Virus record (IMG/VR): IMGVR_UViG_3300042934_000658
Source: a virus
Reading direction: 5' to 3' (one strand)
Length of the DNA stretch: 35,247 nucleotides
The notes beneath the pieces are model-generated. The model was not told the origin of the DNA and ran no database searches. It saw nothing but the letters and a program-made list of their open reading frames with translations. Every line of letters starts with the position of its first letter. Position 1 is the first letter of the stretch. Made by a program: the position numbers and the translations under genes. Shown here one piece after another: positions 19,384 to 24,731 of the stretch.

Positions 19384-19614
19384 ATGAGAAACTGGGAAAA
19401 GATCGACGATAGTATCTATTGGTTCACTTTTGATTTTTTGAGACAGCCGGACAGACGGCGCATTCGGCAAAGGATGCGAGTGACGTTTGATAGCCCGCCT
19501 ACACCGAGTGAGATAAAAACCAAATATCTGCAGCTTGAGAAGACAGCAAGAGTACAGCAATTGCGTAAGGGGTTGAAAACCGATGCCAAACTGGACGAAA
19601 CGGGGGGAGAATAA
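19384..19614 (+). CDS. Free-standing paralog of the integrase N-terminal arm-type DNA-binding domain
   Basis: The ATG at 19384 follows GGAAGGGGG. MRNWEK...Y...RRIRQ...VTFD aligns without gaps to the Int N-terminus MPNWTK...Y...KRIRQ...ITLD. Confidence 0.5.
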   Translation: MRNWEKIDDSIYWFTFDFLRQPDRRRIRQRMRVTFDSPPTPSEIKTKYLQLEKTARVQQLRKGLKTDAKLDETGGE

Positions 19615-20812
19615 GTACCGGCTTATTGCTGAGCTTGGGTATGACGCCAAAGGCAAGCGTATCCGCCAGACTACAACAATCACACTTGATCATAAACCTA
19701 AAAAGGGAGAACTGGATTTAGCTGCAGCCAGGTTTGAAGAGAGTGTCATTAATGGGGAATGGAAAAAGCGCGGTATTGTCGGATTTGAAGCATTTGTACT
19801 GGGCGACTGGAAGAAGAATTATGCTGAGATTGAAATGGGGGAATACACCTGCTTCAATACTATGAGAATAATTGAAGGCCGACTGATTCCCGAGTTTGGT
19901 CGCTTTCAGCTTGATCAAATAAGTACAATTCACTTGGTTCGGTACTTCACGTCCTTGCGAGCTCCTGACGCCCGTAAGGACAAACGCAAAGGACCTTTGG
20001 CTACAAATACCTTACTTAACATTTACAAAGCTTTAAAATCAATATTTGACGCCGCTCATGAGTGGCAGATAATAACCAAAAATCCGATGGATGGAGTAAA
20101 AAGACCTACTGCTGATAAAATTGAGAAGCGCGCCCTAAAGAAACGCAAACGCTCATACTCTCCAAAAGAGGTGGAACGATTAATTACAGCCCTTTATAAG
20201 GAGCCGGAAAACTGGAAGCTGTACTTTATCGGTGTGTTGGTGGGTGGATATCGTCGAGGCGAATATTTAGCCGTGGAATGGCCAGCTGCGGATTTCCAAA
20301 TGTCTAGAATTTATGTAGAAAGGCAGATCACCTTTGACAGTGATGGGCAAGCCACTGAAGGAGAATTAAAAACACTTGAGTCCGAGGGTTTTGTGCCGAT
20401 GCCTCGCTGGTACATGACTGAGTTGAACGCATTTAGGATGAAAGAAATTAGAGCAAGGTTACGAATGGCACCGAATGACTGGAAAGGAGGCGACAGACAT
20501 TTTATATTTCACTCCGGCCATGGCGAACCTTACTATCCAAACACTCCATCAGCAACATGGAGAAAATTCCTGGATAAGTGCGGGCTTCCAAGAGTGCGCT
20601 TGCACGATCTGCGACACACAACGGCAATGTTGCTGCGTGAGTACGGCGCAGACGTCAGAGCAATTCAAAGTCAGCTACGACATTCGAAATTGGCAACTAC
20701 CACAGACACCTATATGGAACGGGATAATACGTTTATTCCCGAAGGTGACAACTTACTGGAAGTTTTGGACCCAAATCGAATTGATGGACACCAAATGGAC
20801 ACCACAAGTTAA
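19583..20812 (+). CDS. int: Tyrosine integrase
   Basis: The 409-aa product has an arm-binding N-terminus, a core-binding domain and a catalytic region with ...RLHDLRHT... and a C-terminal Y in ATTTDTYMER. Confidence 0.95.
   Translation: MPNWTKRGENKYRLIAELGYDAKGKRIRQTTTITLDHKPKKGELDLAAARFEESVINGEWKKRGIVGFEAFVLGDWKKNYAEIEMGEYTCFNTMRIIEGRLIPEFGRFQLDQISTIHLVRYFTSLRAPDARKDKRKGPLATNTLLNIYKALKSIFDAAHEWQIITKNPMDGVKRPTADKIEKRALKKRKRSYSPKEVERLITALYKEPENWKLYFIGVLVGGYRRGEYLAVEWPAADFQMSRIYVERQITFDSDGQATEGELKTLESEGFVPMPRWYMTELNAFRMKEIRARLRMAPNDWKGGDRHFIFHSGHGEPYYPNTPSATWRKFLDKCGLPRVRLHDLRHTTAMLLREYGADVRAIQSQLRHSKLATTTDTYMERDNTFIPEGDNLLEVLDPNRIDGHQMDTTS
20786..20804 (+). repeat. Pair of GGACACCA motifs 11 bp apart (candidate arm-type sites, P arm)
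   Basis: atGGACACCAaatGGACACCAc lies within the 3' end of int. Confidence 0.5.
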
Positions 20813-20870: not shown

Positions 20871-20887
20871 ACGAGACAAAATTAGTA

Positions 20888-20935
20888 TGGAGCGGGTGAT
20901 GGGAATCGAACCCACGCTATCAGCTTGGAAGGCTG
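20888..20935 (-). other. attP core: the 3' 48 nt of a tRNA-Gly(UCC)-like gene (anticodon stem to CCA end), not a complete tRNA
   Basis: The minus strand reads CAGCC-TTCCAAG-CTGATAGC-GTGGG-TTCGATT-CCCAT-CACCCGC-T-CCA. No matching 5' acceptor strand or D-arm lies upstream. Confidence 0.8.
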
Positions 20936-21085: not shown

Positions 21086-21355
21086 CTAATTAAAATCGAT
21101 GCCATCTATGTCTTTCCCCAAAGCCAAAGATATACGTTTCGCAAGGTGTGGAGAAATAACTGATGGTCTCTTTTCAATTTTCATTAACCTTTCTTCGGAT
21201 ATTTCTAGCGCAGCAGCCAACTGTTGTGTTGAAATCCCCGCCTTCTCCCTCGCTACAGTAATTGTAGGTATATTACTGATTTCATCACCCAAAACACATA
21301 CTCCCCTTCTATATACTAAAAATAAGAACTTATGTTCCCAATTATAATCGGTCAA
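21086..21355 (-). CDS. XRE-family HTH protein (start uncertain, possibly an internal TTG)
   Basis: The product contains ...TVAREKAGISTQQLAAALEISEERLMKIEKR.... Confidence 0.6.
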   Translation of the reverse strand: MTDYNWEHKFLFLVYRRGVCVLGDEISNIPTITVAREKAGISTQQLAAALEISEERLMKIEKRPSVISPHLAKRISLALGKDIDGIDFN

Positions 21356-21430: not shown

Positions 21431-21661
21431 ATGAGACTCCGTCAAGGGAGCTGCCTGCTGCCAGATATTCGGAAGTCTCGGGGAAAGACACAAGAGCAGG
21501 TTTGCACTGCTCTTAAGAATGAGTTAGGGGTGGAAATGTCCCCTTCCTACTTCTCCAGGATCGAGAAAGGCATTGCACCTCTGACTCTGCTACAAGCCAG
21601 AGCAATATGCATTGTACTGGCTTGTACCGAGCAACAACTTTATCACTATACGCAAGACTAG
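21431..21661 (+). CDS. XRE-family HTH protein, divergent from 21086..21355
   Basis: The RBS is TAGGAGGGAAC. The product contains ...SRGKTQEQVCTALKNELGVEMSPSYFSRIEKG.... An upstream extended -10 TGgTATAAT is present. Confidence 0.7.
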   Translation: MRLRQGSCLLPDIRKSRGKTQEQVCTALKNELGVEMSPSYFSRIEKGIAPLTLLQARAICIVLACTEQQLYHYTQD

Positions 21662-21888: not shown

Positions 21889-21910
21889 AGCCACCTATAA
21901 GCCGGAGGCT
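21889..21910. terminator. Bidirectional terminator at the end of the agr-like operon
   Basis: The hairpin agccacc-tataagcc-ggaggct is flanked by an A7 run and a T7 run. Confidence 0.6.
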
Positions 21911-21920
21911 TTTTTTATTA

Positions 21921-22294: not shown

Positions 22295-22414
22295 CTACAG
22301 CAATTCTTCTGGAACTTCCCCTTCGTACACATACAGTAAGCTCGCTGTACTAAGCGATCCTACAGCAACAACTGACAATAATGTTGCGAGTAAAGATAGA
22401 GCGCGACGTTTCAT
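22295..22414 (-). CDS. agrD: AgrD-like autoinducing-peptide precursor (39 aa, no cysteine)
   Basis: This ORF is not in the supplied track. Its product is MKRRALSLLATLLSVVAVGSLSTASLLYVYEGEVPEELL. The RBS is GGGAGGTGA, the start lies 3 nt after the agrB stop, and the tail is an acidic EVPEEL like the AgrD EVPKEL. Confidence 0.65.
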   Translation of the reverse strand: MKRRALSLLATLLSVVAVGSLSTASLLYVYEGEVPEELL

Positions 22415-22417
22415 TCT

Positions 22418-22939
22418 TCATTTCACCTCCCTCCATGTAATTAAAGTAAGACCTTGCACCAAAAAGCACAGAGTAAGTGTTGTTGATTGGAAGAAAAAAC
22501 TGCTGGATACAATTAATACAGAAAGAATTTTTAAACCAGGATAGTATCGTCTCGGTATTCGATTTTGCTGTCTAATTCTAGAAGGCGCATATACTATGTA
22601 AAGGATGATGCTAACTACATTGAGTATCTGAATATATTGCAATTCCAGGTGTATCAGAGAAAGTATTGTGAATGTAGTTGTTGTAGCTAAAACACACTTC
22701 ATTCCCGACTTCAGATGAATACCTCCAGAAATTTGTCTTATAGAAGCAAAGACAATCAGTAGAATAATCACTTCCTTTGTCCGGCTGGTTACGAATGATA
22801 CAAGTAATGTTCCAATAATAATGAAAGCCGTATTAAGCATAATGGCGAGTGAATATTTCAGGACAGCTACCGAAGCTTTATGATCGGGAATATTTCGTTT
22901 TATCCCTTCTGCCATTTTTAATGCTAGTGTTTCAATCAT
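22418..22939 (-). CDS. agrB: AgrB-family membrane cysteine endopeptidase
   Basis: The product contains RQISGGIHLKSGMKC, with His and Cys 7 residues apart as in S. aureus AgrB H77/C84. It also has a VYAP motif and multiple TM helices. The ATG at 22939 follows GGGAGAGGGAAG. Confidence 0.85.
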   Translation of the reverse strand: MIETLALKMAEGIKRNIPDHKASVAVLKYSLAIMLNTAFIIIGTLLVSFVTSRTKEVIILLIVFASIRQISGGIHLKSGMKCVLATTTTFTILSLIHLELQYIQILNVVSIILYIVYAPSRIRQQNRIPRRYYPGLKILSVLIVSSSFFFQSTTLTLCFLVQGLTLITWREVK

Positions 22940-23561
22940 CTTCCCTCTCCCTTTTAAAAGAGTAGTACAAGAAAAACATAGAAAGCAGGAAGAAAACAAG
23001 AATATTCATGTAAATTTCTTTGTAGTACAGCAAAACAGATATGCCTAACAAAAAACCAATAATAGTTATTGTAAGCGCTATATCCTCAAACTTAAATCGT
23101 AATTTCTCAAATTCAAAATTAAACCCTTTGCCCATGTGGTAAAGGAAATAGGCTCCGACTATAAGAACAATAGCGCTGATTACCTGCAGCAAATATCCAT
23201 TTACGATACTATTATCTATTGCGCTTATTGATCCAAAAAACAATAACACAATGCAAGTCTGCGTCACAGCAAAAATCACATACCCGGCGATCGTTGCAAG
23301 TAAAGAAAATATCAATGGAAGTTTTACCACAACTGTAAAGAAGATTGTAAATAACATGATACTGATTACCGGCGCAACATTTGCCATAGATAAATCATTT
23401 CTCAGAAGATAACTTTGGAGGTTCATTAGAAGGATGAAAAAAAGCACTTGCCATGCGTACCAACTCCACTTAAACCTAAACAAGCACATTATTAAAAAGT
23501 ACATAGAGAACGCTTCAATAGTTGAAAAAAACATAAAACCTACGGGCTCCCACGACAACAT
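22932..23561 (-). CDS. Polytopic membrane protein (6-8 TM), resembling an AgrC sensor module without a kinase domain or an HdrM/BrsM-type LytTR inhibitor
   Basis: The 209-aa product is almost entirely hydrophobic helices and ends ...FKREREDD right after the last TM. An ATGATTGA overlap couples it to agrB. Confidence 0.65.
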   Translation of the reverse strand: MLSWEPVGFMFFSTIEAFSMYFLIMCLFRFKWSWYAWQVLFFILLMNLQSYLLRNDLSMANVAPVISIMLFTIFFTVVVKLPLIFSLLATIAGYVIFAVTQTCIVLLFFGSISAIDNSIVNGYLLQVISAIVLIVGAYFLYHMGKGFNFEFEKLRFKFEDIALTITIIGFLLGISVLLYYKEIYMNILVFFLLSMFFLYYSFKREREDD

Positions 23562-23670
23562 GCAACACCACCTGACATAATTTTCATTTGACGCAATCAT
23601 TATACCGCCAAAAACCTAAAACCGTATATCAGAATGTGCGACTTTTGCATACTTGAATATTCATGACATA

Positions 23671-23699
23671 AATATATACTCGTACAAGTATATTGTCAA
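23671..23699 (-). promoter_or_regulatory. Promoter of the agr-like operon: TTGACA-17-TATATT
   Basis: The -35 is at 23694..23699 and the -10 at 23671..23676. The 17-nt spacer is one of the two palindromic operators. Confidence 0.55.
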
Positions 23700-23726
23700 T
23701 AAATATTTAATACTTGTACGAGTATA
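23675..23726. promoter_or_regulatory. Two copies of an 18-bp near-palindrome TATACT-N6-AGTATA, which together form a perfect 17-bp inverted repeat
   Basis: tatactcgtacaagtat (23675..23691) is the exact reverse complement of atacttgtacgagtata (23710..23726). One copy lies in each of the two divergent promoters. Confidence 0.8.
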
Positions 23727-23753: not shown

Positions 23754-23975
23754 ATGGTGAGCATATTGGAGGAATCTAAAAGAAGCCCAGCATCACGGGC
23801 AAAGATGAAATACAACGCCAAAAACTATGAACGAATCCCCTTAGATGTCAAAATAGGCACCAAAGCAATCTATAAGGCTGCAGCTGCGGCAGAGAATCTA
23901 AGTCTAAATGCTTTTATCCAGAAGGCCATAGAAGAAAAAATGGATCGAAAATCAAAGGAAACCCCGCCAGCATAA
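23754..23975 (+). CDS. Ribbon-helix-helix (CopG/Arc/HicB-C-like) DNA-binding protein
   Basis: The product contains ...IPLDVKIGTKAIYKAAAAAENLSLNAFIQKAIEEKM. The start codon is uncertain. Confidence 0.55.
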   Translation: MVSILEESKRSPASRAKMKYNAKNYERIPLDVKIGTKAIYKAAAAAENLSLNAFIQKAIEEKMDRKSKETPPA

Positions 23976-24083: not shown

Positions 24084-24100
24084 CAAACGCTTGGGAATTT
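24084..24100. repeat. 17-mer caaacgcttgggaattt, copy 3 (abuts the endolysin stop codon)
   Basis: A perfect match to 8713..8729. Here the hairpin is tcccaa-acgc-ttggga (24081..24096). Confidence 0.85.
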
Positions 24101-24731
24101 ACTTTTTTGCAACGACAAACGTCAACCATGCAAGCTCGGATGTTGTCAGTGTCCTTTTGTCGATCTTATCCAGCCAGGATGTGTCACTGATCGTCTTAGC
24201 GTCCAGGAGCGCCTTAACTCCTGCGCGGAGTGTTGTCCATTGATAGTTTGACAGTTCCAATTCTTCGTCCTCCTTGATGGCCTCAACGGCCTTATTATAT
24301 AGCTCCAACTCCGCCATGCGGCGGCGGACCAGCCCGGGCAACACATTGCCGCCGCCCTTGTTGTACTTGGTGATGTTATCGGCAATCTGCGCAATTGTGC
24401 GGCCCTTACAAAGCTGCTGCAGACTACCATTGCCGCAGTTATAGGTAAAGCTTACAAGAGCATCAAACTGGTTTTGATTGAGTTGCGCTGTCACCGGTAC
24501 ATAAGACGGGCTGTTAACGTATCCCTCATACTTGGCGAGATCCGTCACCAGCATGCTATCAGCCTGGGCCTGTGAGATAGTCATGCCCTCGTTAACATTA
24601 GGGCCATAGTGGCCCCAGCCAATTGTCCAATATTGCTCTGTCGGCACTGGCTTGTATGCCTTGAGGCGGCATCCTTCATAATTTTTAATCAGCTTGATGC
24701 CCGTTCCTGATATTTTACGACTCATTTCCAT
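24099..24731 (-). CDS. Endolysin: GH24 lysozyme domain plus a C-terminal putative wall-binding region
   Basis: The product contains ...IKNYEGCRLKAYKPVPTEQYWTIGWGHYG...FDALVSFTYNCG.... Confidence 0.9.
   Translation of the reverse strand: MEMSRKISGTGIKLIKNYEGCRLKAYKPVPTEQYWTIGWGHYGPNVNEGMTISQAQADSMLVTDLAKYEGYVNSPSYVPVTAQLNQNQFDALVSFTYNCGNGSLQQLCKGRTIAQIADNITKYNKGGGNVLPGLVRRRMAELELYNKAVEAIKEDEELELSNYQWTTLRAGVKALLDAKTISDTSWLDKIDKRTLTTSELAWLTFVVAKK

Follow-up and report, generated by a model that had tools for sequence, protein, structure and literature searches.

A predicted serine-lactone AgrD propeptide encoded in a kinase-free four-gene cassette of a temperate phage

The 35,247-nucleotide (nt) stretch of viral DNA analyzed here (IMG/VR virus record IMGVR_UViG_3300042934_000658; hereafter the window, meaning the stretch at its full length) carries agrD, a small gene for a 39-amino-acid (aa) propeptide, as the third gene of a tightly packed operon. 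On the minus strand, this operon runs from a gene for a protein with seven predicted membrane helices (the 7-helix protein) through agrB and agrD to a gene for a regulator that has a LytTR domain only, and then to a terminator-like hairpin. PHROG families were matched in the window for head and packaging functions (large terminase, portal, and major head protein), for lysis (holin and endolysin), and for the integrase, which is of the tyrosine type; XRE-type regulators are also encoded, and a 1525-aa open reading frame (ORF) is taken, from its size alone, to be the tape-measure protein. The window is a temperate phage genome, and the cassette, which lies between the endolysin (24099..24731) and integrase (19583..20812) genes and outside the core modules, occupies a site where accessory (moron) genes are usually found. 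The principal features are:

23599..23628, minus strand: candidate operon promoter with a weak -35 box (TATACG), an 18-nt spacer, and a -10 box (TATAAT), from an alignment of upstream regions
22932..23561, minus strand: gene for the 209-aa protein with seven predicted membrane helices, based on an AlphaFold2 (AF2) model, a match to phrog_15604, and its position upstream of agrB
22418..22939, minus strand: agrB, for a 173-aa homologue of the membrane endopeptidase/cyclase in which H75 and C82 are invariant, based on Pfam PF04647 and an alignment of homologues
22424..22430, minus strand: Shine-Dalgarno sequence GGAGGTG, within the 3' end of agrB and 9 nt upstream of the agrD ATG, read from the sequence
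22295..22414, minus strand: agrD, 39-aa propeptide MKRRALSLLATLLSVVAVGSLSTASLLYVYEGEVPEELL plus TAG stop, based on the ORF list, a TIGR04223 match, the JGI name, and synonymous-dominated divergence
22328..22342, minus strand: predicted ring codons S25-L-L-Y-V29, with Ser25 (22342..22340) as the predicted lactone nucleophile, based on Ser/Cys conservation 10 residues before the tail Pro and on predicted AgrB cleavage after V29
22298..22327, minus strand: C-terminal recognition tail YEGEVPEELL, with P35 and L38 invariant and E37 near-invariant, based on the column composition of 64 peptides and on TIGR04223 coverage
21921..22283, minus strand: gene for a 120-aa, receiver-less LytTR DNA-binding domain protein (Pfam PF04397)

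The agrD ORF comprises 39 codons with an ATG start, 3 nt past the TGA stop of agrB, and a TAG stop, and contains no Cys codon; the minus-strand translation given in the initial annotation was exact. That annotation also described the ORF as unannotated, which is correct only for the supplied ORF track, from which agrD is missing because of a 60-aa cut-off; in JGI data, an identical 39-aa protein is already named 'cyclic lactone autoinducer peptide'. The NCBIfam model TIGR04223 (“AgrD family cyclic lactone autoinducer peptide”) matched residues 5-39 of the peptide at 36.2 bits (cut-off 19; E = 4.7e-9), and a Pfam scan of the 39 residues gave no match. This profile match and the position beside AgrB make the peptide an AgrD family member, which bears out the AgrD-like assignment made from the sequence at the outset.

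This is a real coding gene and not a chance ORF, given the TIGR04223 match, the adjacency to agrB together with a Shine-Dalgarno sequence, a synonymous bias in its divergence, and its recurrence: a small gene of the agrD type lies 3' of AgrB in about 70 further loci, nearly all of which share the Shine-Dalgarno layout ahead of agrD. Divergence was assessed by codon position from pairwise differences between the agrD ORF and those of four related contigs (69-92% protein identity). Across these five contigs, the differences at codon positions 1, 2, and 3 numbered 106, 33, and 185, respectively; for codons 23-39, which encode the core and tail, the corresponding numbers were 30, 0, and 71, with 74 synonymous versus 12 non-synonymous codon differences.

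The AgrB encoded immediately upstream matched Pfam PF04647 (E = 7.7e-21; 74.7 bits, cut-off 23), and a PDB sequence search with this protein gave no usable match. The segment RQxSGGxHLKSGxxC, which includes H75 and C82 (seven residues apart), is invariant in 10 AgrB homologues, and we take these two residues to be the equivalents of the catalytic H77 and C84 of Staphylococcus aureus AgrB. The start of agrB is overlapped by 8 nt by the stop of the upstream 209-aa gene.

A protein search with the agrD peptide, extended by the in-frame upstream Arg codon, recovered only the identical protein and one 87% relative. The peptide family was assembled via the neighbouring AgrB and 7-helix genes, by taking the small ORF 3' of agrB at every locus (beside AgrB homologues in Paenibacillaceae genomes, prophages, and metagenomes) and registering the peptides on the invariant tail Pro, from which positions are counted below. 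At Pro-10, the residue is Ser in 64 of 66 distinct peptides and Cys in the other two (62 Ser and 2 Cys among 64 registered peptides, with a further two, both Ser, placed by eye); Ala, Gly, and Thr do not occur at this position in any of the 66. The two Cys peptides, from Cohnella sp. REN36 (…TMACLWYFNQPEVPEELL) and Cohnella laeviribosi (…STACLWYFHQPKVPQELL) (loci L024 and L030), have the same register. The four positions after the predicted nucleophile are hydrophobic across the family, with Y, F, or W at Pro-7 in all peptides and I or V at Pro-6 in 59/64. The family tail begins with His, Tyr, or Asn and continues Q/E-P/G-E-T/V-P-E-E-L-L-K, and the V-S-T-A ahead of Ser25 is strongly conserved in the columns of the 64 peptides. 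TIGR04223 matched 39 of 45 representative family peptides at E ≤ 0.01.

In the window peptide, Ser25 lies exactly 10 residues ahead of P35; Cys28 and Pro38 of S. aureus AgrD-I have the same spacing. S. aureus AgrB cuts five residues past the AgrD Cys. By this comparison, S25-L-L-Y-V29 as ring and YEGEVPEELL as tail form the canonical AgrD register, so that SLLYV falls where the initial annotation had placed it. The Pro-10 column supports Ser25 as the ring-forming nucleophile of a predicted five-residue SLLYV lactone, because this position tolerates just Ser and Cys, the two residues whose side chains can yield an ester or a thioester, and a “small residue” or recognition constraint is hard to fit to a column without Ala, Gly, or Thr. 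Where the initial annotation had offered a Ser-derived lactone or a linear product, the family alignment clearly favors the lactone. Computed [M+H]+ values for the predicted cyclic species are 576.3392 (SLLYV), 647.3763 (ASLLYV), 748.4240 (TASLLYV), and 835.4560 (STASLLYV); the corresponding linear peptides are heavier by 18.011 (594.35, 665.39, 766.43, and 853.47, respectively).

For the 209-aa product of the first gene, Pfam and NCBIfam scans gave no match, and a PHROG search matched phrog_15604 ('membrane protein') at E = 6.8e-7. The AF2 model (pLDDT 81.5, pTM 0.78) has seven long helices, and from the positive-inside rule applied to these helices we infer an N-out, C-in topology. An exhaustive HMMER search of 1.8 billion representatives placed 469 clusters (50% identity) in this large, stand-alone family at E ≤ 0.001, and the best 150 of these 469 hits, viewed with kinase-fused relatives in mind, are all ≤236 aa. 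With local profile hidden Markov models, the gene was placed next to agrB, on its 5' side, at almost all of about 75 loci. The most conserved segment of the family is a loop, cytoplasmic in the inferred topology, with G144, G146, F147, L154, R155, and E159; residues 144-157 read GKGFxFxFEKLRFK. The protein resembles the AgrC sensor module in size (about 205 aa), helix count (7), and gene position; AgrC sensor domains are very divergent. Neither a Foldseek search of the PDB with the AF2 model (no hit below E = 4) nor a profile search of PDB sequences (no match) identified a relative. A role as a CPBP/MroQ-type metalloprotease was considered and is unlikely, since no His is invariant across the family. 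As to its start, the first ATG of a longer, 222-aa ORF (23600) falls within the predicted -10 box, and gene calls and homologues instead place the start at position 23561, where an ATG preceded by the ribosome-binding site GGTGGTG opens the 209-aa frame (MLSWEP…).

The 120-aa product of the last gene matched PF04397 over residues 15-112 (31.3 bits, cut-off 22.6), and this match leaves no room for a receiver domain; a PDB sequence search gave no usable match. A LytTR-only ORF of 112-141 aa is found 3' of agrD and ≤400 nt from agrB in 64 of the 74 loci with enough downstream sequence. Within the four-gene operon, we found neither a histidine kinase of the AgrC type, the only membrane protein besides AgrB being the 209-aa protein without a kinase domain, nor a regulator of the AgrA type (receiver plus LytTR); a kinase could still be supplied from elsewhere in the host genome. 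Among 54 large ORFs located ≤4 kb from 37 genome loci, no kinase family is among the 25 commonest of 78 Pfam families, and a receiver domain is present in only two. Each element of the initial interpretation of the peptide held; what that interpretation overlooked is that AgrC and AgrA are missing, with the 7-helix protein and the receiver-less LytTR protein in their stead. Upstream of the operon, TATACG-N18-TATAAT is conserved across the window and five related loci (L001, L004, L012, L013, and L016), and we infer that it functions as the operon promoter.

We conclude that agrD is probably functional as the third gene of a four-gene operon in the accessory region of a temperate phage of the Paenibacillus type, and that its product probably follows the Ser25 lactone route. 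By analogy with the agr systems of S. aureus and Staphylococcus intermedius, the basic, hydrophobic N-terminal leader would put the propeptide into the membrane, where AgrB would cut after Val29, freeing YEGEVPEELL and forming an acyl-enzyme; attack on this intermediate by the Ser25 hydroxyl would yield the five-residue SLLYV lactone. A second protease would then trim the leader to leave zero to few exocyclic residues, and V-S-T-A may mark this second cut, ahead of Ser25. If no exocyclic residue were left, an O-to-N acyl shift could give a head-to-tail cyclic pentapeptide. More tentatively, and given that the cassette has no kinase or receiver domain, the 7-helix protein may read the signal and may gate the receiver-less LytTR regulator as the membrane inhibitors of LytTR systems do; the LytTR protein would then activate the weak -35 promoter of the operon and other targets. 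Sensing is the weakest part of this explanation: the half of agr that produces the signal is present, and the AgrC/AgrA phosphorelay is not.

Several points weigh against this explanation, in both its chemistry and its sensing arm. In the related cassettes of Brevibacillus phage Davies and Paenibacillus larvae phage Harrison, the AgrB-linked, tail-bearing peptides (gp47 and gp40, respectively) have neither Cys nor Ser at Pro-10, and AgrB-linked peptides of the wider group therefore need not all be cyclised. S. aureus AgrB is unable to process a Ser-substituted AgrD (PMC10482373), and lactone formation therefore needs an adapted AgrB, a property that is not readable from sequence. A receptor role for the 7-helix protein is unsupported by homology: in addition to the lack of Pfam and PDB fold matches, hhalign gave probabilities of only 0.2% and 0.6% against the AgrC of Clostridioides difficile phage phiCDHM1, the single AgrC sequence compared. 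The 7-helix protein could instead be a leader peptidase, an exporter, or an immunity protein. When the six upstream regions were aligned and inspected by eye, no convincing direct repeats of the LytTR type (9-bp repeats, 12-bp spacer) were seen ahead of the operon.

Of the alternatives to a Ser25 lactone, the one that survives best, although we consider it unlikely, is that AgrB acts only as an endopeptidase/exporter, that the signal is linear, and that Ser25 is kept for receptor recognition or for cleavage of the leader. The lack of Cys in the window peptide is consistent with this, as are Davies gp47 and Harrison gp40, which have no nucleophile and yet retain a P-K-E-L tail and an AgrB partner; moreover, positions -13 and -11, occupied mostly by S/T and A, are reminiscent of the -3/-1 pattern of signal peptidase. 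However, five peptides have Pro at -11, a poor fit with cutting there by signal peptidase I, and under a recognition or “small residue” constraint Ala, Gly, or Thr should also turn up at Pro-10, where only Ser (64) and Cys (2) occur. The His/Cys pair of AgrB is invariant, and both the ring length and the register to the tail Pro are as in proven (thio)lactone autoinducing peptides (AIPs).

Slightly less probable again is that the mature signal is an all-amide cyclo(SLLYV), formed by an O-to-N acyl shift of a short-lived, tail-less lactone. There is a precedent in the tail-less clostridial AIPs, which rearrange to lactams by an S-to-N shift, with the fate of a tail-less Ser-lactone left open (PMC8251862). 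The conserved V-S-T-A could mark a leader cut directly before Ser25, as this rearrangement would require. However, ester O-to-N shifts are slower than thioester S-to-N shifts, and the Ser-type AIP of S. intermedius retains its exocyclic tail and stays a lactone. Least credible is the refuting condition that the initial annotation had named, namely that the ORF is not expressed or that an overlapping 23-aa frame (MKNETSRS…) is the real product: beyond the existence of an alternative ATG at 22421 nothing speaks for it, and this and other overlapping frames were rejected, since that ATG is merely 2 nt from the Shine-Dalgarno sequence, the start codon is lost in loci L005 and L006, the length is altered in L001 and L004, and it is the agrD frame that has the synonymous bias (74 versus 12 in codons 23-39) and the match to a curated profile.

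Returning to the Ser25 lactone route, the use of Ser in place of Cys has precedents. A Ser-lactone AIP has been experimentally established in S. intermedius, as stated in a passage of PMC10482373 that cites Ji et al. (2005); elsewhere, Ser-lactone AIPs are called rare, and Ser cyclisation in H. thermocellum is mentioned (PMC8251862). The AgrD of Staphylococcus intermedius/pseudintermedius shares with the window peptide the replacement of Cys by Ser, a five-residue ring, and an acidic tail with a conserved Pro. The S. intermedius product is a proven lactone, whereas that of the window is predicted; and the S. intermedius system is chromosomal, with a canonical AgrC kinase and AgrA, whereas that of the window is phage-borne, with no kinase or receiver. 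In Enterococcus faecalis, the AgrB-type enzyme FsrB makes a Ser-linked lactone, GBAP, from FsrD, the propeptide of which is fused to or overlaps fsrB; GBAP is sensed by the FsrC kinase, and its nine-residue ring differs from the five-residue ring predicted here. Within the genus of the closest cellular relatives of the cassette, Paenibacillus polymyxa Pp-AIP1/2, the one characterised case of an AIP from Paenibacillus, have the core ICFGLF, a Cys thiolactone, and a classic AgrC/AgrA scheme (PMC12180512); this system is likewise of the agr type with a five-residue ring, but it is Cys-based, whereas the window peptide belongs to a separate, Ser-type clade.

For the regulatory arm, HdrRM/BrsRM of Streptococcus mutans are the only systems described in which a membrane protein and a receiver-less LytTR regulator are encoded in one operon; in these LytTR regulatory systems, which are autoregulatory, the membrane protein keeps the regulator inactive (PMC6193735). 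The window cassette is similar in that a soluble, receiver-less LytTR regulator shares an operon with a polytopic membrane protein. It differs in gene content and order, since HdrRM/BrsRM have the regulator gene first and no peptide-maturation genes, whereas the window has the order membrane protein, AgrB, AgrD, regulator. The paired direct repeats that define HdrRM/BrsRM, which lie about 10 bp ahead of the -35 element and confer positive autoregulation, were not found upstream of the window operon, and the likeness seen between the membrane proteins is one of arrangement. A bolder proposal, which we hold as possible but rather doubtful, is that temperate phages and other mobile elements of Paenibacillaceae carry a self-contained, kinase-free, agr-type circuit in which a lactone or rearranged pentapeptide is sensed by the 7-helix protein, and the LytTR protein is sequestered or released without a phosphorelay, such that lysogens are counted and host or phage expression is set. 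Such a circuit would join signal production of the agr kind to the transduction of LytTR regulatory systems.

Phage-borne agr genes were described in 2014 in the C. difficile phage phiCDHM1 (Hargreaves et al. 2014, PMC3901668). Like the window, phiCDHM1 is temperate and has its cassette right after the endolysin gene. Its genes run sensor-AgrB-AgrD, and the 7-helix gene of the window takes the place of the phiCDHM1 AgrC gene, with agrB overlapped by 8 nt in both. However, the AgrC of phiCDHM1 is a 453-aa protein with a histidine kinase annotation, and that phage encodes no regulator, whereas the window encodes a 209-aa, kinase-less membrane protein and a LytTR-only regulator. The annotated AgrD of phiCDHM1, MKFFGGVAIAIAFISANTTSVWYINQPKMPKSLKKKL (L048, 26176-26289), has no Cys, has Ser at Pro-10 (…TTSVWYINQPKMPKSL), and, being encoded with a canonical AgrC kinase, serves as an independent control. 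Ring and tail of this AgrD (SVWYI|NQPKMP) closely resemble sequences of the Paenibacillus clade, such as SVLYI|NQPEVP in L013. Judged by this register, the AgrD of the best-known phage agr case is also Ser-type; the words 'serine' and 'cysteine' are both absent from the main text of the phiCDHM1 paper (PMC3901668).

Phages Davies, Emery, and Abouo also figure in that study (Hargreaves et al. 2014, PMC3901668), which noted in them AgrB, a putative AgrD, and membrane proteins that have no ATPase domain. Brevibacillus phages Davies and Abouo and P. larvae phage Harrison have the four-gene order of the window, beside an integrase gene; the four-gene cassettes are gp45-48 in Davies and gp38-41 in Harrison, both isolated phages, and the segments of note are L046 3025-3519 and L047 3013-3504, respectively. 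The window proteins match the same PHROGs as the proteins of these phages: phrog_15604 (membrane protein), phrog_10353 (AgrB), and phrog_15081 (LytTR-like). The 'peptidase' annotation (phrog_15081) of the LytTR-like gene in Davies and Harrison is probably wrong, because the LytTR protein of the window matches this PHROG. In contrast, AgrB identity between these cassettes and the window is just 29-35%, and their peptides keep the P-K-E-L tail without Ser or Cys at Pro-10; the products of Davies gp47 and Harrison gp40 may be linear. Davies also has two paralogous 7-helix genes (gp44 and gp45). Neither the kinase-less cassette nor the Ser-type clade of Paenibacillaceae turned up as the subject of a study in full-text literature searches, which did not extend to the supplementary precursor lists of Paenibacillus AIP mining.

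Close relatives of the AgrB, AgrD, and membrane protein of the window are encoded on metagenomic and IMG/VR contigs with the gene order kept, and all named cellular relatives are Paenibacillaceae. A pattern scan of one genome per species identified 37 loci in Paenibacillus, Cohnella, Thermobacillus, and unclassified Bacillota, and an IMG/VR scan with the membrane-protein alignment identified 29 viral or prophage loci. The window AgrB is 49% identical to that of Paenibacillus anaericanus and 40% identical to that of Paenibacillus sp. R14, in which the cassette has ordinary chromosomal neighbours. In P. anaericanus, the cassette (L007 1630-4896) adjoins genes for FtsK/SpoIIIE, Replic_Relax (relaxase-type), and ParM-like (ALP_N) proteins, which suggests that the cassette is also carried on an integrative conjugative or plasmid-like element, besides phages. 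Additional gene copies were observed in two loci: a second LytTR-only gene follows a convergent helix-turn-helix (HTH) gene in L001 (2840-3217), and a second 7-helix gene, followed by an AgrB fragment, lies about 2 kb downstream of the first cassette in L021 (6065-7020).

Further signals and genes flank the cassette in the window:

23671..23725, minus strand: second promoter, near-consensus TTGACA-17-TATATT, reading into the operon, from a promoter scan
21899..21911, no strand assigned: terminator-like GC hairpin bordered by runs of A and T, just 3' of the LytTR gene, from a terminator scan and the sequence

Around the second promoter, and partly over it, lie two copies of a near-palindrome of 16 bp, ATACTYGTACRAGTAT (23676-23691 and 23710-23725); a search with the near-palindrome pattern gave 4 matches versus 0.08 expected. 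This element is missing from L001 and L004; by its appearance, this phage alone has an additional promoter under repressor control. Beside it, a divergent gene for a 73-aa protein (23754-23975, plus strand) matched only phrog_13890 (function unknown). Downstream of the cassette are two small XRE-type HTH genes, at 21431-21661 (plus strand, convergent with the operon) and 21086-21355 (minus strand), with comparable HTH genes at the same place in L001, L002, L003, L004, and L007; the pair may be part of the module or of phage lysogeny control.

When the cassette and 25 kb of the window were searched as DNA against 50,697 GenBank phage records, no relative was found beyond one 58-nt stretch. Located just 3' of the integrase gene, this stretch (20878-20935) shares 91-94% identity with records of Staphylococcus phages and of phages from human faeces. 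Within it, 20899-20916 (minus strand) has a weak match to the 3' end of transfer-messenger RNA (tmRNA) (Rfam RF00023; 12.4 bits, E = 0.039), and ARAGORN found no complete tRNA or tmRNA. The stretch is a candidate attP core, which would imply integration into the host ssrA gene.

The AgrD family, Ser-lactone signals, and phage-borne agr genes are already known, and the family annotation of this peptide is public in JGI data. What is new here is the family-wide Ser/Cys evidence, the recognition of phiCDHM1 AgrD as Ser-type, and the delineation of a widespread, mobile, kinase-free four-gene module. The window peptide adds a well-supported member, and with it a whole Paenibacillaceae clade, to the small set of AgrDs that use Ser. 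The kinase-less sensing arm is of greater interest than the peptide itself: the four-gene module without kinase or receiver is conserved across dozens of genomes (Paenibacillus, Cohnella, and Thermobacillus), in prophages, and in a region resembling an integrative conjugative element. Should the 7-helix protein prove to be the receptor, the module would illustrate transduction of a cyclic-peptide signal without phosphorylation, and would represent a portable communication device for temperate phages of soil- and plant-associated Firmicutes, in concept like arbitrium.

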